Assembly (NCBI GenBank): GCA_023246355.1
Contig: JAHFIQ010000003.1
Location: forward strand, 85,018 to 149,017
Source: Candidatus Uhrbacteria bacterium
GTDB taxonomy: Bacteria; Patescibacteriota; Patescibacteriia; UBA9934; GWF2-40-263
DNA length: 64,000 nucleotides
Direction of reading: 5' to 3'
How positions within the stretch are numbered: position 1 is the stretch's first letter; each line of letters starts with the position of its first letter. Positions 15,335 through 43,135 of the stretch are shown piece after piece. The notes under the pieces were generated by a model, which saw only the letters and a list, made by a program, of their open reading frames with translations, did not search any database and was not told the DNA's origin. Made by a program: the position numbers and the translations under genes.

Positions 15335-18019
15335 TCATGCTCCATGGCACTTCTTAAACTTTTTTCCTGATCCGCAATGGCAGGGTTCGTTGCGGCCGAG
15401 TTTTTCTTCTCGCATGCCTTCGACCCCCCTCATTCCCCCCTTGCCAAGGGGGGAAGCTTTCTGATTCCCCTCTACGGCTCCTTGCAGCACCACTCCTGCC
15501 TTCTGGAAGACAGATCGGCCGAGTTCCATTTGGACTTTCATGTCCACCGCGTGCTTGGCGTACTTAAAAAACGTATACGTAATTTCATGGTTGATTGATC
15601 CAAGAAGATTTTGGAACATACCAAAGCCTTCTCGTTTGTACTCAACCAGCGGATCGCGCTGACCGTAGCCTTGCAAGCCGATGCCGGTTCTCAGCGCACT
15701 CATCGCAGCAAGATGATCAATCCAGAGTGTATCGATCGATCGCAGAATCACCCCGCGCTCGATGTTGTAGATGCTCTTTTTGTCTTCGAAGACGTCGGCG
15801 AGCTGATCGTAGGTCTGGCGAACGACTTCCATGATTTTGATGATGACTTGCGTCCGATCTTGCGCCAGCCGCTCTCGCTCTTTTGTGGATGCTAGGTCAA
15901 GCGTTGTGAGTGAAGACTTCTGTGCATCCGTGAGCGGCACAATCGTCCCTACGGTCTCAACAATTTCTTTCATGTTCCATCCACCTTCTCCACCTTGTCC
16001 ACCCTCAGAACTATGAAACAACACGACCTGCTCCACCTCACCTTCGATCACATCCAGCACACGAGATCGAAGAGCTTCTGGTTCTTTTGCAAACAATTCA
16101 AGGATTTCCAAGCGTCTGGCATAGATGACTTCACGATGCTTGTTGAGCACGTCGTCATACTCGAGCAAATGTTTGCGTGAATCAAAATGATACCCTTCCA
16201 CGCGTGTCTGTGCCTTTTCAATTGAGCCGGTGATGAGTTTGTTTTCAATGGGCATGTCATCCGGAATTCCGAGGCGGTCCATCATGCCTCGCGCACGGTC
16301 TGAACCGAAGATCCGCATGAGTCCATCTTCCATAGACAAATAAAACTGGGTGGAACCTGGATCGCCTTGGCGACCTGAACGTCCGCGCAATTGATTATCG
16401 ATGCGCCGAGCGTCGTGGCGCTCCGTGCCGATCACATGCAATCCTCCAAGTTCTTTGACACGCGCTTCTTCCTCAGGCGTTGCTGGATTTCCGCCAAGCT
16501 TTATGTCGACTCCGCGTCCTGCCATGTTAGTGGCAATCGTCACCGCGTGAGTACGTCCTGCCTGGGCGATAATTTCCGCCTCGCGATCGTGATTTTTCGC
16601 ATTCAATACTTCATGCCTGACCCCCGCGTTTGTCAAAAGCAGGGACAGCACCTCATTTTTTTCCACGCTCACGGTACCCACCAAGACGGGTTGACCTTTT
16701 TCTTGAAGCGTCTGAATTTCTTTGACGACCGCCTCAAACTTTCCCTTTTCACTCTTAAAAATTTTGTCTCCTAAGTCAACCCGCTCCACAGGTTTGTTCG
16801 TTGGGATCTCTACGACTTCCAAATTGTAGATCTTGGAAAATTCTTCGGCTTCGGTTGCCGCGGTTCCGGTCATGCCTGACAACTTGTGATACAAACGAAA
16901 AAGATTCTGGAACGTAATGGTCGCAAGTGTTTGGCTCTCACGCTGGATCTGCACGCCTTCTTTTGCCTCGATGGCTTGATGAATCCCTTCGGAGAATCGG
17001 CGGCCCTGCATCAGACGTCCAGTAAATTCATCCACAATAATCACCTCACCTTCCTTGACCACATAATGGACGTCCTTTTGATAGTTGGCACGAGCTCGGA
17101 GCGCAGAATCAGCGTAGCGTTGATATTGTCCTTGATCGATCGCATAGAGATTTTCGATTCCAAGCGCTCGTTCAATATGTTCAATGCCTGTTTCTGTCAG
17201 CGTGGCCGCACGCATTTTTTCGTCCACATTATAATCTTCGTTCTCTTTCAACGAAGCCACGATCTGCGCAAACCGATAGTAGAGGTCATTGGATTTCTCC
17301 GCAGGTGCGGAGATGATAAGTGGTGTGCGAGCTTCGTCGATCAGGATGGAATCGATTTCGTCAACGATCGCGTAATGCAATTCGCGCATGACGCATGCCT
17401 CAATGCTCGGCGCCATGTTGTCGCGCAAATAATCAAATCCAAATTGATTGTTGGTGCCGTAGGTGATGTCCGCTTGGTAGGCTTCGCGGCGAGAGACCGA
17501 TCTGAGTCCATGCGAAGCCGCGGGATCAAACAGGAGTCCTCCTTCATGCTGAATCACACCAACACTCATGCCAAGCGCATGAAAAATTTGCCCCATCCAT
17601 GCGGCATCGCGACGGGCCAGATAATCGTTGACCGTCACCAGATGACAACCCTGACCACGAAGAGCATTCGCGTAGAGCGCAAGCGTTGAGGTGAGTGTTT
17701 TTCCCTCACCAGTACGCATCTCAGCTATCTGTCCACGATGGAGCGTGAGCCCACCAATGAGCTGAACATCAAAATGGCGCTGCCCAAGTGTTCGTTTTGC
17801 GACCTCTCGTACCACCGCAAAGGCCTCGTACACAAGATCATCAAGAGCCACGCCTTGTGCGAGGCGCGATTTAAACTCGGAGGTTTTTCCTTTCAGTTCA
17901 TCGTCCGTGAGCGATGCAATCGAAGGCTCGAGCGCGTTAATGCTCTCGATTTCACGAAACAGACTTCCGATGAGTTTCTTGTTTGGATCCCCAAAAAGAA
18001 GTTTCAAGACTCTGGACAT
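15335..18019 (-). CDS. secA: preprotein translocase ATPase SecA
   Basis: 894 aa; MRTGEGKTLTSTLALYANAL Walker A region and DEAD motor. C-terminal zinc finger CHCGSGKKFKKCHG. Linker contains an in-frame palindromic-element insertion at 15414-15445. Confidence 0.97.
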   Translation of the reverse strand: MSRVLKLLFGDPNKKLIGSLFREIESINALEPSIASLTDDELKGKTSEFKSRLAQGVALDDLVYEAFAVVREVAKRTLGQRHFDVQLIGGLTLHRGQIAEMRTGEGKTLTSTLALYANALRGQGCHLVTVNDYLARRDAAWMGQIFHALGMSVGVIQHEGGLLFDPAASHGLRSVSRREAYQADITYGTNNQFGFDYLRDNMAPSIEACVMRELHYAIVDEIDSILIDEARTPLIISAPAEKSNDLYYRFAQIVASLKENEDYNVDEKMRAATLTETGIEHIERALGIENLYAIDQGQYQRYADSALRARANYQKDVHYVVKEGEVIIVDEFTGRLMQGRRFSEGIHQAIEAKEGVQIQRESQTLATITFQNLFRLYHKLSGMTGTAATEAEEFSKIYNLEVVEIPTNKPVERVDLGDKIFKSEKGKFEAVVKEIQTLQEKGQPVLVGTVSVEKNEVLSLLLTNAGVRHEVLNAKNHDREAEIIAQAGRTHAVTIATNMAGRGVDIKLGGNPATPEEEARVKELGGLHVIGTERHDARRIDNQLRGRSGRQGDPGSTQFYLSMEDGLMRIFGSDRARGMMDRLGIPDDMPIENKLITGSIEKAQTRVEGYHFDSRKHLLEYDDVLNKHREVIYARRLEILELFAKEPEALRSRVLDVIEGEVEQVVLFHSSEGGQGGEGGWNMKEIVETVGTIVPLTDAQKSSLTTLDLASTKERERLAQDRTQVIIKIMEVVRQTYDQLADVFEDKKSIYNIERGVILRSIDTLWIDHLAAMSALRTGIGLQGYGQRDPLVEYKREGFGMFQNLLGSINHEITYTFFKYAKHAVDMKVQMELGRSVFQKAGVVLQGAVEGNQKASPLGKGGMRGVEGMREEKLGRNEPCHCGSGKKFKKCHGA

Positions 18020-18448: not shown

Positions 18449-19401
18449 AATCCTAAATAAGCTACTTCCTCTTCTAACTGTATCCCAAGTTCGTTCCGTG
18501 TGCGAGTTTTGACAAGTGCAACGAGCTGAACCACTTCATCGGCCGTGGCGTTTCCGAGATTCACCACAAAATTTCCATGCATCTGACTGATCATGGCCTG
18601 ACCGATCTTTGTGCCTTTGAGATCCAACTGGTCGATGAGCCAGCCCGCAGAGAGCCTGCGAGCTGACAACATCTCTGGTGGTATATCGAGTTTTTGAGAA
18701 AGTCGTTGCAGCTCAGTTTCATCCTGGATCTGATAATTTTTAAACAGACATCCTGCTGATCCGGCATCAAGCGGCTGAGAGGATTTGCGCTTCATAAGCT
18801 TATCATCGAGTTCGGCTTTCAGCTCTCGCGCATCGCCTTCTTCTAGTTCAAACGTAGCTGAGAGAACAATGTCGTCGGTGTGTTTAAGCACGGACTCACG
18901 ATAACCAAGCTTCAAATCCACCTTATCTACTTTTTCCACCTTCCCACCTCTTAAGACCTCAACACTCACCAACCGATCCTTCATCTCTCCACCAAAACAT
19001 CCGGCATTTCCACGCACGCCGCCGCCAACCGTTCCAGGGAGCGAAATCGCCCAGGTGAGTCCTTTGAGTCCGGCGTTTGCCGTGGCTCTGGCAAGCGCGG
19101 AAGACAAAACTCCTGCCTGCGCCACGACACGTGTGCCATGAATTTCGTAAGTTCGCATCGCGATTTTGATAACGATCCCATCAAATCCCGCGTCAGAGGC
19201 AAGCGTGTTTGAACCGCCACCAAAAACGACAAACGGAATCCTGTTTGTCTTGGCAAGATCAATAACCTGTTGAAGTTCCTCCATGGTTCGGACTTCGACA
19301 AACCACTTGGCTGGTCCACCGATCCGAAAGTTCGTGTGCTTTGAAAGCAGCTCGTTTTCAAGAACGCGTGAGCCAACGATGTGTCGCAGAGATTCTGTCA
19401 T
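18445..19401 (-). CDS. murB: UDP-N-acetylenolpyruvoylglucosamine reductase MurB
   Basis: FAD-binding HTNFRIGGPAKWFVEV and FVVFGGGSN motifs; 4-bp overlaps with hpf and murC. Confidence 0.92.
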   Translation of the reverse strand: MTESLRHIVGSRVLENELLSKHTNFRIGGPAKWFVEVRTMEELQQVIDLAKTNRIPFVVFGGGSNTLASDAGFDGIVIKIAMRTYEIHGTRVVAQAGVLSSALARATANAGLKGLTWAISLPGTVGGGVRGNAGCFGGEMKDRLVSVEVLRGGKVEKVDKVDLKLGYRESVLKHTDDIVLSATFELEEGDARELKAELDDKLMKRKSSQPLDAGSAGCLFKNYQIQDETELQRLSQKLDIPPEMLSARRLSAGWLIDQLDLKGTKIGQAMISQMHGNFVVNLGNATADEVVQLVALVKTRTRNELGIQLEEEVAYLGF

Positions 19402-20753: not shown

Positions 20754-20762
20754 ATTGTAGCA
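20754..20762 (-). promoter_or_regulatory. extended -10 promoter (TGCTACAAT) placed for a leaderless murC mRNA
   Basis: Coding-strand TGcTACAAT followed by only 9 nt before the murC ATG. Confidence 0.45.
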
Positions 20763-20763
20763 T

Positions 20764-20866
20764 AGGTAGACAAGGTGGATTAGGTAGACAAGGTGGCAAG
20801 GAAATTTGAAATCCCTCATCCACCTGATCCACCTCTTCCACCTTATCTACCTCCTCAAAATGAAAA
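20764..20866 (-). repeat. AGGTAGACAAGGTGG direct repeats plus inverted CCACCT/CTACCT repeats upstream of murC
   Basis: aggtagacaaggtgg at 20764-20778 and 20782-20796 (18-bp period). Inverted copies atccacctgatccacctcttccaccttatctacct at 20811-20866. Confidence 0.6.
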
Positions 20867-33581: not shown

Positions 33582-36196
33582 AGAGCGGCGGCTTCTTCTA
33601 TGCGAATCCCTCCTCCTGCCTCAAGCACAATCGTGTCACGTCGTTTCACTTTTCCTTCCAACAGAGCGTTGGCAATCGCGTTGTCAACTTCCTCCTGTAC
33701 CAGACGCCGCAGAGGTCGCGCGCCAAATTTTGGATCAAAGCCTTTTTGCGCGAGCTCGGCAATCGCCTCAGGAGCCGCCCGAAATCCGATGCCTTTTGGC
33801 TCCAACCGTTTTGCCACCTGGGCCATAAACAATTCTGTAATCGAAAGGACATCTTCACGTGCAAGAGGCTTGAACACAATCACCCCATCAAACCGATTCA
33901 AAAATTCAGGTCGATAAATTCCGCGCAATGCTTCTTCCAACAACTGCGTTTTCACACTCGCCAGATCTTCGCCACGTCCTACGGCATCTTGGATATACTG
34001 CGTGCCGGCATTGGAAGTCGCGATGATGATCGTGTTGGTAAAATCAACCGTGCGTCCTGCCGCATCTGTCAAACGTCCGTCATCAAACACCTGCAAAAAG
34101 AGATTCAAAATATCGGCGTTTGCTTTTTCAAGCTCATCCAACAGGACAATGGAAAAAGGATTTTTCCGCACGGCCTCGGTGAGCAACCCACCTTGTCCTG
34201 ATCCTGGCACACCGATCATCCGATGGATGCTCGAGGGATCTTGATACTCGGACATGTCCAGGCGAATCATCAGGTCCTCTGAACCGAAGTAGGTCTGTGC
34301 GACGGTTTTCGCCAGCTCTGTCTTTCCCACACCAGTTGGTCCGAGAAACAAAAACGTGGCGATGGGTCGAGCTTGGGAACGCAATTCTGTCCGTGCTCGA
34401 CGGAGCGCGGCGGACACGGCTGACACGGCTTCGTCTTGGCCGATCACGCGACCATGCATGCGGCTTTCAAGGGCCAACAACTTTTCTGTTTCATCGGATT
34501 GAACCGAAGTGGTTGGGATTCCCGTCTTGCCGGCGACGATCAGACTCACATCTTCCCCTGTCACCAACGCATCCTTACCTCTCGTCTTCGCCACCTGCAG
34601 CGCGGTCTCACGAGCAATTTCAATCGCCTTCTTTGGCAAGTAGGTTTCATGCATGTACCGATCGGTGAGTGTCACGGCCTTCTCCACGGCCTCGTAGCTG
34701 AACACCACGTGGTGCTCATATTCCATTCCACCAATTTTGGATTCAAGGATGTGAATGGCCGCTTTGTGATCGGGTTCCAACACATCGACCTTCTGAAATT
34801 CGCGACCGAGCACAGATCGCTCCACCACTTCGCTGTAGGCCTGTGGCGTGGTGGTGGCAATCGCGAATGTCCCGCTGCGTGAGAGAAAATCCACAAGCGT
34901 TGAGGCGAGATCGTTGGCCCCGTTTTGCGAAACGAGTTGATCGATGTCGGTGATCGCTAGAATAATATTGCGAGACTTGGCGACTTCCGAGAGCACAAGC
35001 AGCAACCTCTCCTGAGCCTCTGCCTCAGAGGCACCAGACACAAGATGAGGAATCGAAAGACGCACAAGACGTTTGTCTTGCAAAATCGTTGGCACACACT
35101 CTTCCACCATCAGCTCAGCCACACCAGCCACGATGGATGTTTTTCCTACCCCTTCAGATCCCACGAGGATCACACTTTGACGACCACCTTCGATCACGCG
35201 AAACAATTCTTCGATCTCGCTCTCGCGCTCAATCAGCATGGGCAATCTGCCGGACACGGCCGCGGTGGTGAGATCCTCAGAAAGGGCATCGAGCATGGGC
35301 GTGACCACGCTGGTCATTGATCGATTCATGGCGCCTGTGGGTTTGTAGAGCGCGGCTTTTTTAAAACGTTCGTAGCGCTCACGCATCTTTTCGTGAATGC
35401 CAAGCCACGCCACCATGTTCCAAAATTGATTCTCATCCACGTGGTTGTCCAAGAGGAGCTCCTGCAAAAAAGGATCTGCTTGATAGCTTGCCGCAAACAC
35501 CGCAAGCGCGGTCACGTGCTCTTGTTTTTCTCGCAGAGCCCCACGAAAGCCTTCCAACAGGACCCGCTCAGCATCCAAAGAAAACTGCGTGGGTTTACTC
35601 AGTGGCCGCGTTGAAAGCCGGCGTGTCAGAGGATCTTTCAGTACATCGACTGTCAACCCAAGACGATTAAACACAACATGCACGTTCACATCATCAAGCG
35701 CCCCGACAAAAAGATGAATCGGCTCGACCGTTGCGTGTCCGTAGGAATTTGCCAGCTCAAAGGCCGCCTCAACGGCTTTCTTGGCATCGGGTGAAAAGAA
35801 CGTTTCGATGTTGATCGCCTCGTTCACTGCATCCACCTCTTCCACCTTCCCCACCTCTTCTCCCACTGGCATCTTCACTTCACGATGCGCCACAAGACGC
35901 TTGTGATACCAAACAAACAACAGCGCGAGCCCTGTTCCCCAGACGAACACGAGAGTCCAAGAAGGCTTCATCCAAAAGGCAGATGTCAAAACACGTGTCG
36001 GATCTGTGATGAGCAACAGAAGGATCGCCACCGCCGCAAAAACGCAGGTCTTCACCACACTTAAGATAAACAACACCTGCATGGCTTTTTCGTGAGCTGA
36101 GCGATCCATCACGATTGCCTCGTCCAGGACCGCAGACCAGACATAGGTCTTGCCACCAAGTTGTACGGCGAGCTTTGGCATATCAGAAAAGGACAC
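33578..36196 (-). CDS. ClpA/ClpC-like double-AAA+ chaperone with an N-terminal transmembrane region
   Basis: Two AAA modules (GSEGVGKTS and GPTGVGKTE Walker A; DELEKA sensor region) about 255 aa apart (no ClpB M-domain). The first ~110 aa contain 2-3 hydrophobic helices. An alternative start at MPVGEEVG would remove them. Confidence 0.8.
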   Translation of the reverse strand: MSFSDMPKLAVQLGGKTYVWSAVLDEAIVMDRSAHEKAMQVLFILSVVKTCVFAAVAILLLLITDPTRVLTSAFWMKPSWTLVFVWGTGLALLFVWYHKRLVAHREVKMPVGEEVGKVEEVDAVNEAINIETFFSPDAKKAVEAAFELANSYGHATVEPIHLFVGALDDVNVHVVFNRLGLTVDVLKDPLTRRLSTRPLSKPTQFSLDAERVLLEGFRGALREKQEHVTALAVFAASYQADPFLQELLLDNHVDENQFWNMVAWLGIHEKMRERYERFKKAALYKPTGAMNRSMTSVVTPMLDALSEDLTTAAVSGRLPMLIERESEIEELFRVIEGGRQSVILVGSEGVGKTSIVAGVAELMVEECVPTILQDKRLVRLSIPHLVSGASEAEAQERLLLVLSEVAKSRNIILAITDIDQLVSQNGANDLASTLVDFLSRSGTFAIATTTPQAYSEVVERSVLGREFQKVDVLEPDHKAAIHILESKIGGMEYEHHVVFSYEAVEKAVTLTDRYMHETYLPKKAIEIARETALQVAKTRGKDALVTGEDVSLIVAGKTGIPTTSVQSDETEKLLALESRMHGRVIGQDEAVSAVSAALRRARTELRSQARPIATFLFLGPTGVGKTELAKTVAQTYFGSEDLMIRLDMSEYQDPSSIHRMIGVPGSGQGGLLTEAVRKNPFSIVLLDELEKANADILNLFLQVFDDGRLTDAAGRTVDFTNTIIIATSNAGTQYIQDAVGRGEDLASVKTQLLEEALRGIYRPEFLNRFDGVIVFKPLAREDVLSITELFMAQVAKRLEPKGIGFRAAPEAIAELAQKGFDPKFGARPLRRLVQEEVDNAIANALLEGKVKRRDTIVLEAGGGIRIEEAAAL

Positions 36197-37786: not shown

Positions 37787-38881
37787 CTATGTCTTCAGGT
37801 TAAGCTCTTCAAGCAATTTTTTCTGCTCGCGTGAAAGTCTCTCTGGTGTCTTCACTTCCACGGTCACGATTTGATCGCCACGACCACGATTGGATGGCAC
37901 GCCCTTACCGCGCAAACGAAACTGAGAACCAGATTGTGTTCCCGCAGGAATTTTCAAGTCGCCTTTGCCATCAACCGTTTCGATTTCGATCGTGTCGCCC
38001 AAGGCCGCTTGGGTGAAACCGATCGTCGACTGGCTATGGATGTGAATCCCATCGCGCTCAAAACGAGGATCGTGCTTGACGTGGAGTCTCACAAATAAGT
38101 CTCCGGTGCGGCCACCACGCACCGCTTCACCTTTTTCGCGAACGCGAAGCACGGCTCCGTCATCCACACCCGCAGGAATCCCAACGGACAGCCGTTCGCG
38201 TTTTCGCTCTACTCCCTCACCATGACAGGTCGAACAAATCTTGTTTGGAATCTCTCCTGTTCCCTGACAAACCTCGCAACTTCTCTTGCTCTGCATGGTT
38301 CCCAAAATCGTTCTTTGCATCGTGACCTGCACGCCGCTCCCCTTACACGTGTCACACGTCTTCATTCCAGACCCTGGTTCACCACCCGTGCCTGCACAGC
38401 GTTCACATGCGGCATTTTTTGTGACCTCGATGTCTTTATTCACGCCAAAAACAGATTCAGAGAACGACAGATCCGCATCGACTTGAATGTCACTTCCGCG
38501 TGGCTGACCTCGGCCACCTCCTCGACCACCGAACATGTCTCCAAACAAGTCACCCAAATCTTCAAACCCTCCCGCCTGTTGGAAACCGGAAAAATCCCAG
38601 GCGGAGCCTGGTCCGCCTCTGGAGGAAAAACCTCCAAAGCCTTGACTTCCCCCAAAGCCAGACGACCCATCAAAGGCGGCGGACCCAAATTGATCGTACT
38701 TCGCGCGCTTTTCCGGATCGCCCAAAACTTGGTATGCCTCATTGGCTTCCTTGAACTTCGCCTCATCGCCGCCAGCCTTATCAGGATGATACTTGTGCGC
38801 CTGAGTGCGAAACGCTTTTTTGATGTCGTCGGCCGATGCGTTTTTGTTGACGTTCAGTATTTTGTAATAATCTTTGGGCAT
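37787..38881 (-). CDS. dnaJ: chaperone DnaJ
   Basis: J-domain KDYYKILNV...HPDK, G/F-rich region and four CxxCxGxG repeats. Start set to MPKDYY (ATG RC of 38879-38881). Confidence 0.95.
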
Positions 38882-38888
38882 ACGGTGA

Positions 38889-38916
38889 GTAGACGGTAGA
38901 CAGTTGACAGTAGACA
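38889..38916 (-). repeat. GTAGAC repeat block (downstream flank of the four-helix-bundle gene, upstream of dnaJ)
   Basis: gtagacggtagacagttgacagtagaca; inverted relative to the block at 39275-39304. Confidence 0.6.
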
Positions 38917-38917
38917 A

Positions 38918-39271
38918 CTACCTTTGAGACTCGCGCAAGGAACACAATTTTTTCCAAAGGATATTGGATGAAGCATCCATTCGCGACCAAGTATCTTCGC
39001 TGATATAAGAAAGTTTTAAAGCGATTTTGAAAGCCGCATGAACTTCAACAAGAGAAGCAAGACCAATAGTAATGTATCTTGAGAATTCTTTTCTACTTCC
39101 ACGTGCAGAACCTTCAGCGAGATTAAGATAGATCGAGTAAGCCGCTCTACGAACCTGACTTGTTAATCCGTACTTCTCCTCAGGAGGAAAGGATGCGGTC
39201 GTTGCATGCACCGCATCAACGAAGGCAAGTATGTCCTTCCCGACCCTCAATTCTTCATATCGAAATCCCAT
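38918..39271 (-). CDS. four-helix-bundle protein (23S rRNA intervening-sequence protein family, TIGR02436-like)
   Basis: EEKYGLTSQVRRAAYSIYLNLAEGSARGSRKEFSRYITIGLASLVEV matches the family consensus (E.RYGLTSQLRRAA.SI..NIAEG..R...KEF..FL.IA.GSL.E). Confidence 0.9.
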   Translation of the reverse strand: MGFRYEELRVGKDILAFVDAVHATTASFPPEEKYGLTSQVRRAAYSIYLNLAEGSARGSRKEFSRYITIGLASLVEVHAAFKIALKLSYISEDTWSRMDASSNILWKKLCSLRESQR

Positions 39272-39274
39272 ATT

Positions 39275-39304
39275 CTGTCTACCGTCTACTGTTAACCGTC
39301 TACC
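39275..39304 (-). repeat. GTAGAC repeat block (upstream flank of the four-helix-bundle gene)
   Basis: Coding strand reads GGTAGACGGTTAACAGTAGACGGTAGACAG immediately before the ATG. Confidence 0.6.
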
Positions 39305-39768
39305 TTTTCAACAACGTCAACCACCGTCGGTTTCTCGATCGACAGATAGTCGCTGTACTTCATGTTGATCGAATCAGTGAGTGAACCCGCGTTGAAGTGT
39401 ATCACGTCATTCTCAGCAAGCCGACGGTCGACGTACGTTTTGAGTCCGATCACAGAACCAAACGGAGGTACGGATCCCTTCACGCAACCCGTGACGGCCT
39501 CGGGCTCAGTGGCAAAACTGATGTTCTCACCCAGAATGGCTTTTGCTTTTTTCCCATCCAACCGCAAATCCGCCGGCATCACAAATAAGACATGCTGCTT
39601 GGTCTTGCTCCCCCGCACCACCAACGCCTTAGCTCCAGCATGTAACGGCACGCCACGAATCCTGGAGGCATCTTCACTCGTATACGTCGGCTCGTGATGA
39701 GCGGTGTGATATTCAGTGCCAGAGGAATCCAGTAGCGATTTAATTTTTTCAAAGATGTGCGTCGACAC
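39292..39768 (-). CDS. YbaK/ProX-family aminoacyl-tRNA deacylase-like protein
   Basis: 158 aa; GCVKGSVPPFGSVIGL (GxVxPFG deacylase motif). Confidence 0.7.
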   Translation of the reverse strand: MSTHIFEKIKSLLDSSGTEYHTAHHEPTYTSEDASRIRGVPLHAGAKALVVRGSKTKQHVLFVMPADLRLDGKKAKAILGENISFATEPEAVTGCVKGSVPPFGSVIGLKTYVDRRLAENDVIHFNAGSLTDSINMKYSDYLSIEKPTVVDVVEKVDG

Positions 39769-39770
39769 AA

Positions 39771-41669
39771 CTATTCCTTCTTCTCTTGAAACTCCGCATC
39801 AATTGGCTCGTCTTTTTTTTCTTCCTGCCCACCTTCTCCACCTTGTCCACCTGTTCCACCTTGTCCACCTGCCGTTTGATACATCTTCGCACCCACTTTC
39901 TGTGCAGCGGTCGACAACTCGTCGGCGGCTTTCTTGATAGCTTCGTGATCATCACCATCCTTCACGGCCTTGAGCGCAGCAATCTTGTCTTCGATGTCTT
40001 TCTTTTCCTCAGGAGTGGCTTTTTCCCCAGCCTCTTTCATCATTTTCTCCGTTGTGTAAATCATGGTATCTGCTAAATTCTGATGCTCAACCTTTTCTTT
40101 GAGCTTCTTATCTTCCTCTGCATGACTTTCCGCGTCGCGCTTCATGCGTTCCACTTCGTCCTTGGAAAGTCCTGTGGATCCTTGAATGGTAATTTTCTGA
40201 CTCGTACCCGTGCCTTTGTCCGTGGCCGACACATTCAAAATGCCGTTGGCATCAATATCAAACTTCACTTCCACCTGAGGCACGCCGCGAGGTGCCATGG
40301 GGATGCCGGACAAAATAAATCGACCGAGCGTCTTGTTGCCAGACGCCACTTCACGTTCCCCTTGCAGCACATGAATCTCCACCGTTGTCTGGTTGTCTGC
40401 GGCTGTGGAAAAAATTTGTGACTTGCCAGCAGGAATCGTCGTATTGCGTTCAATCAGTTTCGTCATCACGCCACCGAGTGTTTCAATGCCAAACGAGAGT
40501 GGGGTGACATCCAACAGAAGCACGTCTTTCACTTCACCTTGAAGAACGCCCGCTTGCACCGCAGCGCCAAGGGCCACGACTTCGTCTGGATTCACGGTGA
40601 TGTTCGGCTTCTTTCCAAAAAAATCCTCAACGGTTTTTAAGACCAACGGCATGCGGGTCATCCCTCCGACCATGACGATTTCTTCGATCGCTCCCTTGTC
40701 GAGTCCCGCGTCTTTGAGCGCGGCCTTGAGCGGCACGAGTGTTTTGGCAACCAAGTCATGACACAGCTCTTCAAGCTTGCTGCGCGTCATGCTGAGCACC
40801 AAGTGCTTGGGGCCATTTGCATCAGAGGTAATAAACGGCTGGTTGATTTCCGTTTGTGCGGCTGTGGAGAGTTCGATCTTGGCACGCTCAGCCGCATCTT
40901 TCACACGTTGAAGCGCCAGAGAATCCTTGGACAGATCAATCCCCTCTTGCTTCTTGAACTCCTCCAAAATCCAATCAATGATCACGCGATCAAAATCATC
41001 GCCGCCCAGATGGGTATCGCCATTGGTGGATTTGACTTCGACGGTATCTTCAGAAACTTCCAGCACAGACACATCAAACGTGCCGCCACCCAAATCGTAG
41101 ACCACAATTTTCTGACCTTTCTTTTTATCGAAGCCGTAGGCAAGGGCCGCCGCTGTTGGCTCGTTGATGATGCGACGCACCTTGAGACCAGCAATCTCGC
41201 CAGCGGTTTTTGTTGCCGCGCGCTGTGCGTCATCAAAATACGCCGGTACGGTAATAATCGCTTCCTCGATTTTTTCGCCAAGTTTTTCCTCCGCATCCGC
41301 TTTCAATTTTTGCAGCACCATCGCGGAAATTTCCTCAGGCGTGTATTCCTTCTCTGCCATCTTGATCGCGACTCCATCGCCGCGTTTCACAATTTCAAAC
41401 GGCATGACCTTTTGGTCACGCATGACTTCCGCATCGTCAAAACGACGTCCGATCAATCGCTTGATGGAGTACAACGTATTTTTCGGATTGGTGACCGCTT
41501 GTCGTTTGGCTGACAAACCCACAGAGCGTTCACCAGCTTTGTTGACCGAAACCATCGACGGGGTGGTACGGGCGCCTTCTTTGTTTTCCAAAACCTTGGG
41601 CTGACCACCTTCGATGATCGCCACGCACGAGTTGGTTGTTCCAAGATCGATTCCGAGAATTTTTGGCAT
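39771..41669 (-). CDS. dnaK: chaperone DnaK (Hsp70)
   Basis: [21 protein letters not shown] and [10 protein letters not shown] signatures; Gly-rich [15 protein letters not shown] tail. Confidence 0.98.
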
Positions 41670-41764
41670 ATGGGAAAGGTATGTAAGGTAGACTAGGTAG
41701 ATGAGGTGGTAAAGAGGAATTGCACACCTCGGCCACCTTTTCCACCTTAACCACCTAAGTTGTT
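41670..41764 (-). repeat. AGGTGG direct repeats and CCACCT/CTACCT inverted repeats in the grpE-dnaK intergenic region
   Basis: Coding strand AGGTGGTTAAGGTGGAAAAGGTGG...CCACCTCATCTACCTAGTCTACCTTACATACC. The first repeat overlaps the grpE stop codon. Confidence 0.6.
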
Positions 41765-42217
41765 AATAATCACCTTCGCTGGACGGACAATGCGGTCACC
41801 GAGCTTCCAGCCGCGATGGATGACTTCCAAAATTTGATCATCGAGCGCGCTCTCATCCGTTTTTTCACCAACCGCTTCGCACGACGTGCTATCGAACAGC
41901 TCTCCGGCGTTTCCAAATGCCTCCAGTCCCAGATTTTTCAAAACACCTTCCAGACCCTGTCGTACATGCAGAATGCCTGCGAGCCATTTTTCTATTTCCG
42001 GTGAACCTCCTTCTGGTTTGTGCTTGAGTGCTTGATCGAAATGATCAATCGATTCGATCAGATCGTGGGCGAGAAATTCTTTTGTGCCTTCACGAATGGC
42101 CGTGCGCTCTTTGGCGAGATCTTTTTTGAGATTATCGTAGTCGGCCAAAGCGCGTTTCCATCCTGTGAGATACTCGTCACATTTCACACATGGGTCGATT
42201 GGTGTTTTATCACTCAT
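41747..42217 (-). CDS. grpE: nucleotide exchange factor GrpE
   Basis: Start set at MSDKTPIDP (ATG RC of 42215-42217). The track ORF extends to 42424 only because repeat copy A lacks stops in that frame. Confidence 0.88.
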
Positions 42218-42285
42218 AAGACATTTTTCAAAATAAGATGAGATCGGCTTGAACGGGCTGGCAGACGCTGAAAACCTACTCATGG

Positions 42286-42409
42286 GACCTCTGCAAAACT
42301 CGATGAGATTGCGATGCGCGGGGAAGCCAGCCTCCGAGACGTAGTGAAAACTACGTTGAGGAGGTGGCGGGGCCCCGCAAGTCGCAAGATCGCGAGTTTT
42401 GCAGAGGTC
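42286..42409 (+). repeat. MITE-like structured repeat, copy A (124 bp)
   Basis: GACCTCTGCAAAACTCGATGAGATTGCGATGCGCGGGGAAGCCAGCCTCCGAGACGTAG-tgaaaa-CTACGTTGAGGAGGTGGCGGGGCCCCGCAAGTCGCAAGATCGCGAGTTTTGCAGAGGTC. Terminal inverted repeats of ~17 bp. Lies in the hrcA-grpE intergenic region. Confidence 0.8.
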
Positions 42410-42410
42410 A

Positions 42411-43100
42411 CTATAGTTGTTCAATGACGTTACGCGCTGATTCGACCAAAGCTAAGTTTCGACGATAATTCATTCTGAGTGGCCCGGTGACACCGACAAA
42501 CCCTTCCTCACCACTGTGGATTTGGTAGCGCACCACGACCGTGGCCATCTGTGAACCAAAGGGATTTTCAGAACCGATCCACACATGCGGCTCTTGGCCT
42601 GCACGCGCAAACAATCCCATCAGGAGTTCATCAAATTGATCGATCACATCTGAAAGTTCCATGATGATTGCCAAATTCTGAAAATCCGGTTTGTGAAACA
42701 AATTGGCCACGCCTGAGTAATAGCTCCACTCATCATTGAAGGCGAGAATCGCGGTCTCTCCCGAAACTTCACCAAGCGTTTTGACCACAGACTTCAGCGC
42801 GCTTTGCGTGTTGTCCTCATCGGGAACCGGCAAGGCTTTCACAAGCGTGGAAACTTTTTTCTCCACCAAATGCTTCAGGTAATAAACGTACGCTTTTTCC
42901 GTTGGTACACGACCGGCCGAGGTGTGCGGGGCGACAAGATAGCCTTCGCCCTCAAGTACAGCCATTTCGTTTCGAATCGTGGCAGCGGAAACCCCCAAAT
43001 CAAATTGCTCGTTGAGGACCTTTGAACCAACCGGCTCAGCACAGCGGATGTATTCCTCAATCAGGATCTTTAAAATGAGTTCTTTTCTGGAATCCAGCAT
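42411..43100 (-). CDS. hrcA: heat-inducible transcription repressor HrcA
   Basis: wHTH N-terminus (ILKILIEEYIRCAEPVGSKVL) and HrcA C-domain. Start set at MLDSRKEL (ATG RC of 43098-43100). Confidence 0.9.
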   Translation of the reverse strand: MLDSRKELILKILIEEYIRCAEPVGSKVLNEQFDLGVSAATIRNEMAVLEGEGYLVAPHTSAGRVPTEKAYVYYLKHLVEKKVSTLVKALPVPDEDNTQSALKSVVKTLGEVSGETAILAFNDEWSYYSGVANLFHKPDFQNLAIIMELSDVIDQFDELLMGLFARAGQEPHVWIGSENPFGSQMATVVVRYQIHSGEEGFVGVTGPLRMNYRRNLALVESARNVIEQL

Positions 43101-43108
43101 AAAACAAA

Positions 43109-43135
43109 TTAGCACTCACCATTATAGAGTGCTAA
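43109..43135 (-). promoter_or_regulatory. CIRCE operator (TTAGCACTC-N9-GAGTGCTAA), perfect match
   Basis: ttagcactcaccattatagagtgctaa immediately upstream of hrcA. Confidence 0.9.

Follow-up and report, generated by a model that had tools for sequence, protein, structure and literature searches.

The origin and purpose of ribosomal RNA (rRNA) intervening sequences (IVSs) have posed a problem since about 1990. To our knowledge, the protein family PF05635/TIGR02436, known mainly from a few of these sequences, has no assigned function outside diversity-generating retroelements (DGRs), whose accessory protein Avd binds nucleic acid. Here we describe a member of this family, a gene for a 117-aa four-helix-bundle (4HB) protein, which is bracketed by two inverted arrays of short tandem units (arms). 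The gene belongs to a heat-shock operon in a Candidatus Uhrbacteria bacterium, where dnaJ follows it directly. The whole 64-kb stretch analysed (contig JAHFIQ010000003.1, positions 85,018 to 149,017) is referred to as the window.

In Coxiella burnetii, a 23S rRNA IVS with a 28-bp terminal stem carries an S23p open reading frame (ORF) and is excised by RNase III in vitro, with mapped ends (PMC4990558). Two to three GACAGAT heptamers and one degenerate copy stand just before this ORF, whose ribosome-binding site is poor; S23p production from the IVS went undetected unless a ribosome-binding site was engineered in (PMC4990558). IVSs with an S23p ORF have also been reported for Leptospira, Xanthomonas and Brucella, and the protein XCC0516 was found to be a homopentamer (PMC4990558). 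PF05635 has been described as an Avd-like family, homologous to the Avd of DGRs (PMC10053308). In cyanobacteria, STRR (short tandemly repeated repetitive) elements with 7-bp tandem repeats form hairpins between the co-transcribed genes hupS and hupL, where they were proposed to affect transcript stability or translational coupling (PMC2670836).

A four-helix-bundle gene enclosed by inverted heptad arms

The 4HB gene occupies 38918-39271 on the minus strand, as assigned with Pfam and NCBIfam, and its product matched PF05635 (23S_rRNA_IVP) at 89.2 bits (cut-off 33.8), with 103 of the 106 profile positions covered, and TIGR02436 at 82.9 bits (cut-off 24). Residues 5-113 were homologous to XCC0516 of Xanthomonas campestris (2GSC_A, E = 7.6e-18), which is known as a structure (PDB 2GSC), a four-helix bundle assembled into a homopentameric ring. 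When the window gene was compared with its 78% and 67% identical homologues, the proportion of nonsynonymous differences (pN) was 0.15-0.21 against a saturated synonymous proportion (pS) of 0.76-0.81, values which indicate that the 4HB protein is under purifying selection.

Each arm is 28 nt long and consists of four heptads, of the form GTAGACN in the 5' arm and NGTCTAC in the 3' arm; the two are 86% complementary and have a perfect 16-nt core in common. The 5' arm (39303->39276, minus strand) reads GTAGACG, GTTAACA, GTAGACG and GTAGACA, and its end lies 4 nt from the ATG of the 4HB gene. The 3' arm (38916->38889, minus strand) reads TGTCTAC, TGTCAAC, TGTCTAC and CGTCTAC, begins 1 nt past the 4HB stop codon (TAG, 38920-38918) and ends 7 nt (TCACCGT) before the ATG of dnaJ, so that it makes up, together with TCACCGT, the entire 36-nt spacer ahead of dnaJ. 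The 5' arm encodes the final residues (KVDG) and the stop codon of the preceding YbaK-like gene, whose TAA (39294-39292) falls within the second heptad. The repeat-bracketed 4HB gene upstream of dnaJ had been noticed in an initial annotation, and the family matches and the two inverted arms show that it is real. The downstream block, however, had been misread by one base and starts TTGTCTAC, not CTGTCTAC, and the stop codon said to be overlapped by a repeat is not that of the 4HB gene, which the 3' arm follows, but that of the YbaK-like gene within the 5' arm.

Tandem GTNNACN blocks were found in the window at the two arms only. The hexamer GTAGAC occurs 22 times in the window against 10.3 expected, a count that was reached in 0 of 100 shuffles, and six of the 22 copies lie within the arms. 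The flank inverted-repeat score of the cassette was 16, compared with a 99th percentile of 11 among 562 control ORFs. Given that the GTAGAC unit is kept in both arms despite saturated synonymous sites, it is conserved beyond what neutral drift allows. When the RNA of 38870-39320 was folded, the minimum free energy structure paired both arms around the whole ORF (z = -3.4), and the arms folded alone formed a stem of 25-27 bp at about -40 kcal/mol.

The inserted gene as identified from relatives

In four Uhrbacteria relatives, the gene order is hrcA-grpE-dnaK-[variable]-ybaK-[variable]-dnaJ. The initial annotation regarded the dnaK-dnaJ order as interrupted by two genes. Since the YbaK-like gene stands between dnaK and dnaJ in all four relatives, it is ancestral there and not part of the insertion, and the claim holds for the 4HB gene only. 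In one relative (L011) the YbaK-like gene overlaps the start of dnaJ with nothing between them, and we read this ybaK|dnaJ junction as an empty site.

Homologues of the 4HB gene were found at two different loci. The 78% identical one (P0002, in L004/L005) lies at ybaK|dnaJ, the 67% identical one (P0003) lies downstream of rpoC on another contig, and both have GTAGAC heptads on both sides, from which it follows that gene and arms move together. In the closest relative of the window organism (L009, with DnaK 92% and YbaK 90% identical), ybaK is followed by 467 nt of unrelated sequence that contain no heptads. The L004/L005 organism is more distant (DnaJ 66%, YbaK fragment 63%), yet its 4HB protein is 78% identical. 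Because the cassette-free L009 is closer to the window organism than the cassette-bearing L004/L005, the distribution of the cassette departs from host phylogeny. The empty site, the heptads around the homologue after rpoC and the mismatch with host phylogeny bear out the earlier suggestion of a repeat-flanked cassette, and indicate that the 4HB gene and its arms are a discrete, lineage-specific cassette.

The same comparisons bear on the possibility that the gene order is ancestral and the repeats are a generic promoter or operator motif of the species, with no relation to the 4HB gene. In its favor, the ancestral position of the YbaK-like gene is borne out, and the window does have related 9-nt units elsewhere, namely at two more operon junctions and within some of its coding regions (described below). 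The heptad arms themselves, however, stand around the 4HB gene alone in the 64 kb, the same heptads flank the homologue after rpoC in another organism, L011 has an empty site, a promoter scan found nothing in the arms, and arms are cassette-specific throughout the family. We regard a generic motif as largely refuted and very improbable.

The 3' flank of the 78% homologue has a further peculiarity (L005 540-625, equal to L004 372-457). Three blocks of GTCTAC units follow each other, of which the first two end in a degenerate dnaJ start context (TGATCGTAAGTCC, then TCACCGTAAGCCC) and the third ends at the real start (TTACTTATGCCC), which looks like repeated slippage or duplication of the arm with its junction. 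In L009, L010, L011 and L014, the dnaK-dnaJ interval is a hot spot where small, mutually unrelated insertions flank the conserved YbaK-like gene on one side or the other, including DUF3467, a 114-aa ORF, a 213-aa ORF, Virulence_RhuM, and a HAD hydrolase with a further gene; by eye, L009 may also carry a DUF559-like remnant.

Operon context and resemblance to rRNA intervening sequences

The operon is transcribed from the minus strand in the order hrcA-grpE-dnaK-ybaK-4HB-dnaJ. Pfam matches identified hrcA (42411-43115), grpE (41747-42424), dnaK (39771-41669), the tRNA_edit/YbaK-like gene (39292-39768) and, directly downstream of the cassette, dnaJ (37787-38881, with its ATG at 38881). Upstream of hrcA lies a perfect consensus sigma-70 promoter (TTGACA-16-TATAAT, 43148->43121, minus strand), overlapped by a perfect 27-nt CIRCE (controlling inverted repeat of chaperone expression) operator at 43109-43135, a textbook case of HrcA control in a genome of the candidate phyla radiation. 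In a scan of the operon this was the sole credible promoter; no second credible promoter or terminator was found upstream of dnaJ. Because the cassette has neither of its own, the HrcA-controlled transcript most likely carries both the 4HB gene and dnaJ, in which case expression of dnaJ would depend on read-through across the cassette. The identical locus was found in several samples. The missing Shine-Dalgarno sequence at the 4HB gene and dnaJ was considered as a sign of special translation and dropped. Its absence is uninformative because this genome seldom uses such sequences, GGAG, GAGG or AGGA being present at -18 to -4 in 4 of the 45 window ORFs of at least 250 aa.

Set beside the 23S rRNA IVSs, the window cassette encodes the same protein family and has its ORF within terminal inverted repeats, which pair into a stem of about 28 bp. 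In both, tandem heptamers precede the ORF (GACAGAT in Coxiella, GACAGTA/GACGGTA in the window when read in a shifted register), the element lies in sense to a strong host transcript and is sporadically distributed, and the ORF is without a good ribosome-binding site. The two differ in their hosts, as the window cassette sits at a protein-coding junction, ybaK|dnaJ, rather than in a 23S rRNA helix, and its arms abut a stop codon and a start codon. They differ as well in that RNase III excision has been demonstrated for rRNA IVSs and is predicted for the window cassette, and in the selection on the ORF, which is purifying in the window, while decay has been reported for the ORF of Coxiella. By this analogy, the anatomy of the window cassette is judged to match the Coxiella IVS point for point, location apart.

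We consider that the 4HB gene and its arms are probably a promoterless IVS-type cassette, inserted in sense at ybaK|dnaJ, whose stem is cut by RNase III. Under this explanation, one Uhrbacteria lineage would have acquired the cassette in its heat-shock operon, which is under HrcA/CIRCE control, at the ybaK|dnaJ junction. In the operon transcript its arms would pair to form a 27-bp double-stranded stem around the ORF, as in the Coxiella IVS. RNase III would then cut the stem, so that the RNA of the cassette is freed and the dnaJ message is parted from that of dnaK-ybaK, as the anatomy and the published precedent suggest. Removal at the RNA level would explain why cassettes are tolerated in essential operons and in rRNA. 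An interaction between the protein and its cognate repeats is a plausible addition to this explanation.

A survey of four-helix-bundle loci

To place the window cassette within its family, 80 named loci from many phyla were collected by a genome scan with an alignment of seven sequences as the query. A metagenome scan yielded 80 further loci, all at most 47% identical to the GTAGAC type, which served as a replication set. Of 85 4HB ORFs, 63 had a flank inverted-repeat score of at least the 95th percentile, and 52 of at least the 99th percentile, of the 562 control ORFs, which came from the same loci as these 85, and in the replication set 52 of 69 lay above the 99th percentile. Over 154 loci, the best unit period was 7 in 106, 8 in 40 and 9 in 8, and the arrays had about 4 units (interquartile range (IQR) 3-5), with up to about 17. 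The unit of the 5' arm differed from the complement of the 3'-arm unit by 1.71 mismatches within a locus, as against 3.28 between loci. The family is very large, as a single-sequence search reached 11,504 clusters at 50% identity (E <= 0.001). The window cassette is an ordinary member of a seemingly widespread but little-described class. In the openly searchable literature, with subscription journals and curators' notes outside the search, we found no description of repeat-flanked 4HB cassettes at operon junctions.

None of the 80 related genome loci was in rRNA, and there is no rRNA in the window. The initial description of the family as classically found inside 23S rRNA therefore gave a wrong picture. 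In 58 of 85 loci the 4HB gene and both of its neighbours point the same way, the median gaps being 72 and 46 nt. Pfam-verified junctions include dnaK|dnaJ (L066), atpD|atpC, accB|accC, ahcY|metF, pheS|pheT, trpE|trpG, glmU|glmS, ilvN|ilvC and metK|ahcY; at a groES|groEL junction (L085), groEL was checked with Pfam and groES was read from the sequence. In L066, a metagenome-assembled genome of Burkholderiales, the 4HB gene stands at dnaK|dnaJ in the same layout as in the window but with different units, GTGAAAC, which form a perfect inverted repeat of 31 bp, the variant unit included. Some junctions were filled across genera: Dokdonella, Luteimonas and Rhodanobacter, for example, each have a cassette at accB|accC, and four Proteobacteria have one at ahcY|metF.

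Such recurrence raises the alternative of a domesticated operon-processing or regulatory element, the stem of which would uncouple the stability or translation of dnaJ from that of dnaK and so set subunit ratios, with a like role at groES|groEL, atpD|atpC and accB|accC. Besides the repeated occupation of accB|accC and ahcY|metF, this alternative draws on the many junctions that part genes needed in unequal amounts, and on the effects on stability or coupling proposed for the STRR hairpins at hupS-hupL (PMC2670836). But relatives manage without the cassette at the same junction and the conserved ORF in the loop is left unexplained; we think domestication quite unlikely. The co-opted regulatory role suggested in the initial annotation is required by none of the results.

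The 5' arm was purine-rich on the coding strand in 37 of 49 loci and, in the replication set, in 26 of 40, the opposite being seen in two loci of each set. This purine polarity and the co-orientation with host transcription point to a constraint at the level of the transcript. We also considered that the 5' arm serves to place stop codons in all three frames. Although stops in at least two frames were present in 31 of 49 5' arms and 16 of 49 3' arms, 13 of the 49 5' arms have none and the bias follows from purine richness, and the idea was rejected.

Unit similarity tracked protein identity: units differed by at most one mismatch in 95% of protein pairs above 80% identity and in 51% of pairs at 60-80%, and were near random between proteins less than 50% identical. 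Cassettes sharing one contig had differing units and proteins 37-53% identical, each with matching arms, and therefore the arms are specific to the cassette and not a host-wide signal. These observations allow a module of protein and repeat, in which the 4HB protein, as a putative pentamer, would attach to the tandem units of its own cassette, one unit per protomer, on RNA or single-stranded DNA, and thereby control its own translation, the cleavage of the stem or the propagation of the cassette. The arms would then act as binding sites of specific sequence in addition to forming a stem. Such a module, which is compatible with an IVS-type cassette, would account for units being kept between cassettes with saturated synonymous sites, for the tracking of protein identity, for the different units and divergent proteins of co-resident cassettes and for the purine-rich 5' arms. 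About 4 units per array (IQR 3-5) would also suit a protein whose homologue XCC0516 is homopentameric, and a further point in its favor is that Avd is a homologue (PMC10053308). However, the same correlation between unit and protein identity would result if whole cassettes shared common descent, arrays reach about 17 units, and the Coxiella IVS gave no detectable S23p unless a ribosome-binding site was engineered in (PMC4990558). We therefore put the module forward tentatively, as a possibility.

Membership of the Avd superfamily, with its four-helix-bundle pentamers, suggests that the 4HB protein has a capacity to bind nucleic acid. That it is itself the Avd accessory protein of a DGR is extremely improbable. 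In favor of this identity, the PHROG 'Avd protein of DGR' was matched weakly (E = 0.0033), and PF05635 is Avd-like in nature (PMC10053308). Against it, no reverse-transcriptase family match was found among the called genes within 6 kb on either side and no template/variable repeat lies within that distance, the sampled operon-junction loci likewise lack both, and inverted unit arrays are foreign to DGR anatomy. The called neighbours within the same 6 kb were housekeeping-type genes or had no Pfam match. Neither the 4HB protein nor the YbaK-like protein matched PADLOC at E <= 0.01, and a defence-system reading was rejected.

Several loci of the survey showed further features. In L022, L029, L154 and L017, two or three 4HB cassettes stand at consecutive junctions of one operon, each with its own units, and in L022 and L154 the gene with a cassette on each side resembles a thiolase, judged by eye from its terminal residues. 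L114 holds a recent tandem duplicate of the 4HB gene, 97.5% identical and with units in common. In L008 (5880-6420), where a 53% homologue follows xseB, TGTTCA units lie further upstream and TGAACA units, with a period of about 9, lie just upstream and downstream of the gene, a layout that combines a hairpin on the upstream side with a direct repeat spanning the ORF. S-adenosylhomocysteine (SAH) riboswitches precede ahcY in L037 (1369-1445), L041 (1415-1491) and L072 (1390-1461); given that these loci carry the 4HB gene at ahcY|metF, the cassette there lies inside a riboswitch-controlled transcription unit. A figure legend in a large survey of clustered regularly interspaced short palindromic repeats (CRISPR) lists '23S rRNA IVP' among CRISPR-associated proteins (PMC10910872); we speculate that unit arrays flanking 4HB genes might have been scored as CRISPR-like in that survey.

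Hairpins of related units without an ORF

Two hairpins of related design without an ORF were found in the window, both on the minus strand. The first, in the grpE|dnaK spacer (41675-41756), has three to four AGGTGG units, a loop and four CCACC/CTACC units (fold z = -4.7), and the grpE stop codon lies inside its first array. The second, in the spacer upstream of a murC-like gene (X|murC, 20760-20852), pairs AGGTAGAC/AAGGTGG with CCACC/GTCTACC (fold z = -8.5). Both are built of period-9 units, AGGTGG/AGGTAGAC in the 5' half and CCACC/GTCTACC in the 3' half, and share the core GGTAGAC with the arms of the cassette. Since the grpE-dnaK spacer is just 2-34 nt long in relatives, the grpE|dnaK hairpin is lineage-specific as well. 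Judged from these spacers, the heat-shock operon carries two insertions of like design, one with the 4HB gene and one without. The occurrence of hairpins of related units at other junctions means that the repeat design is not exclusive to the 4HB gene; the heptad arms of the cassette are unique in the window, as reported above.

The X|murC hairpin folds at -59.7 kcal/mol in sense and -43.3 kcal/mol in antisense, with six and zero G-U pairs, respectively. The sense fold was the better one in six of seven Uhrbacteria-type elements, usually by about 3 kcal/mol.

The AGGTGG units of these hairpins are themselves Shine-Dalgarno-like. GGTGG/GTAGA units of 9 nt also run in frame within long ORFs on the minus strand (39829-39869, 35833-35855, 15981-16003 and 18918-18948), where they read as linkers rich in Gly, Val, Asp and Lys, for example in the DnaK tail and as EEVGKVEEVD in a clpB-like protein. 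These in-frame units may be absorbed arrays or ordinary low-complexity coding sequence.

The nearest precedent for these two period-9 hairpins, and for the arm design without an ORF, is the STRR family. Like the cassette arms, with their four plus four units, STRR elements are period-7 tandem units that form hairpins in operon spacers; unlike the cassette, they have been described with no ORF in the loop, consist of other units and belong to another phylum, the likeness being one of description. STRR repeats reportedly also occur in the gene for RNase P RNA, to go by the title of a 1997 article by Vioque. The accessible STRR texts contain no tie between STRR and PF05635 genes.

Discussion

Several results count against an IVS-type cassette processed at the RNA level. 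Neither a mobility enzyme nor, at the window, L005 or L066 junctions, a target-site duplication was found, so that the term mobile is argued from distribution alone. Within that distribution, L009 is informative for just 467 nt past ybaK, where its contig ends. The neighbour orientations were taken from a longest-ORF heuristic, by which some high-GC loci are misassigned. A signature search of the 64-kb window found no rnc gene, which says nothing on the rest of the genome. Ribosomes that translate the YbaK-like gene as far as its stop codon, which the 5' arm contains, would partly unwind the stem. The family-wide strand test was null, the arm cores having 47 mismatches of the G-U type in sense and 54 in antisense (p = 0.55), a result that leaves room for a strand-symmetric role of the arms at the DNA level. 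This arm-core test had replaced a comparison of whole-flank RNA duplex energies, sense against antisense (p = 0.30), which was swamped by spurious extended pairing.

A role at the DNA level is what would be expected of a transposable element, in which the arms act as terminal inverted repeats for a transposase or recombinase encoded in trans, in the manner of a miniature inverted-repeat transposable element (MITE), with the 4HB gene as cargo. The absence of a family-wide G-U strand bias, the patchy distribution with an empty site and with different sites for the same cassette type, and the ORF-less versions with related units in the same genome all fit such an element. The cassette also resembles MITEs, repetitive extragenic palindromic (REP) sequences, bacterial interspersed mosaic elements (BIMEs) and integron cassettes in being small, dispersed, furnished with inverted repeats and often intergenic, and integron cassettes are promoterless ORFs too. 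It differs from them in its lack of a target-site duplication, its tandem cassette-specific arms, the absence of an integrase or attC-type single site, and a conserved ORF of one particular family; inverted arms are present, but no transposase is encoded within the cassette. Further, cassette-specific unit arms of variable copy number are unlike the targets of a single host transposase, co-orientation with host transcription and the fixed purine polarity suggest a constraint on the transcript, and the X|murC hairpin has six G-U pairs in sense only. On balance we regard a transposable element as unlikely, and an IVS-type cassette as the better explanation.

In terms of genome annotation, these results carry the warning that a gene upstream of such a unit array can take its stop codon from it, and that the arrays may pass for CRISPR-like ones. 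They also offer a link between rRNA IVSs, the STRR hairpins of cyanobacteria and Avd-like proteins. The cassette-specific inverted arrays of 7-8-nt units, their sense placement at the junctions of essential operons and their IVS-like anatomy make the old problem of the rRNA IVS a testable one. More speculatively, rRNA IVSs could be a special case of a much larger, hitherto undescribed class of promoterless cassettes, and of ORF-less derivatives resembling STRR hairpins, at junctions within highly expressed transcription units, each cassette encoding a four-helix-bundle pentamer that recognises its own arms and would form, together with RNase III, a module for RNA processing and propagation. 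If this is true, the class would colonise dnaK|dnaJ, groES|groEL, atpD|atpC and accB|accC as well as rRNA, and the module would be a self-contained, intercistronic one.

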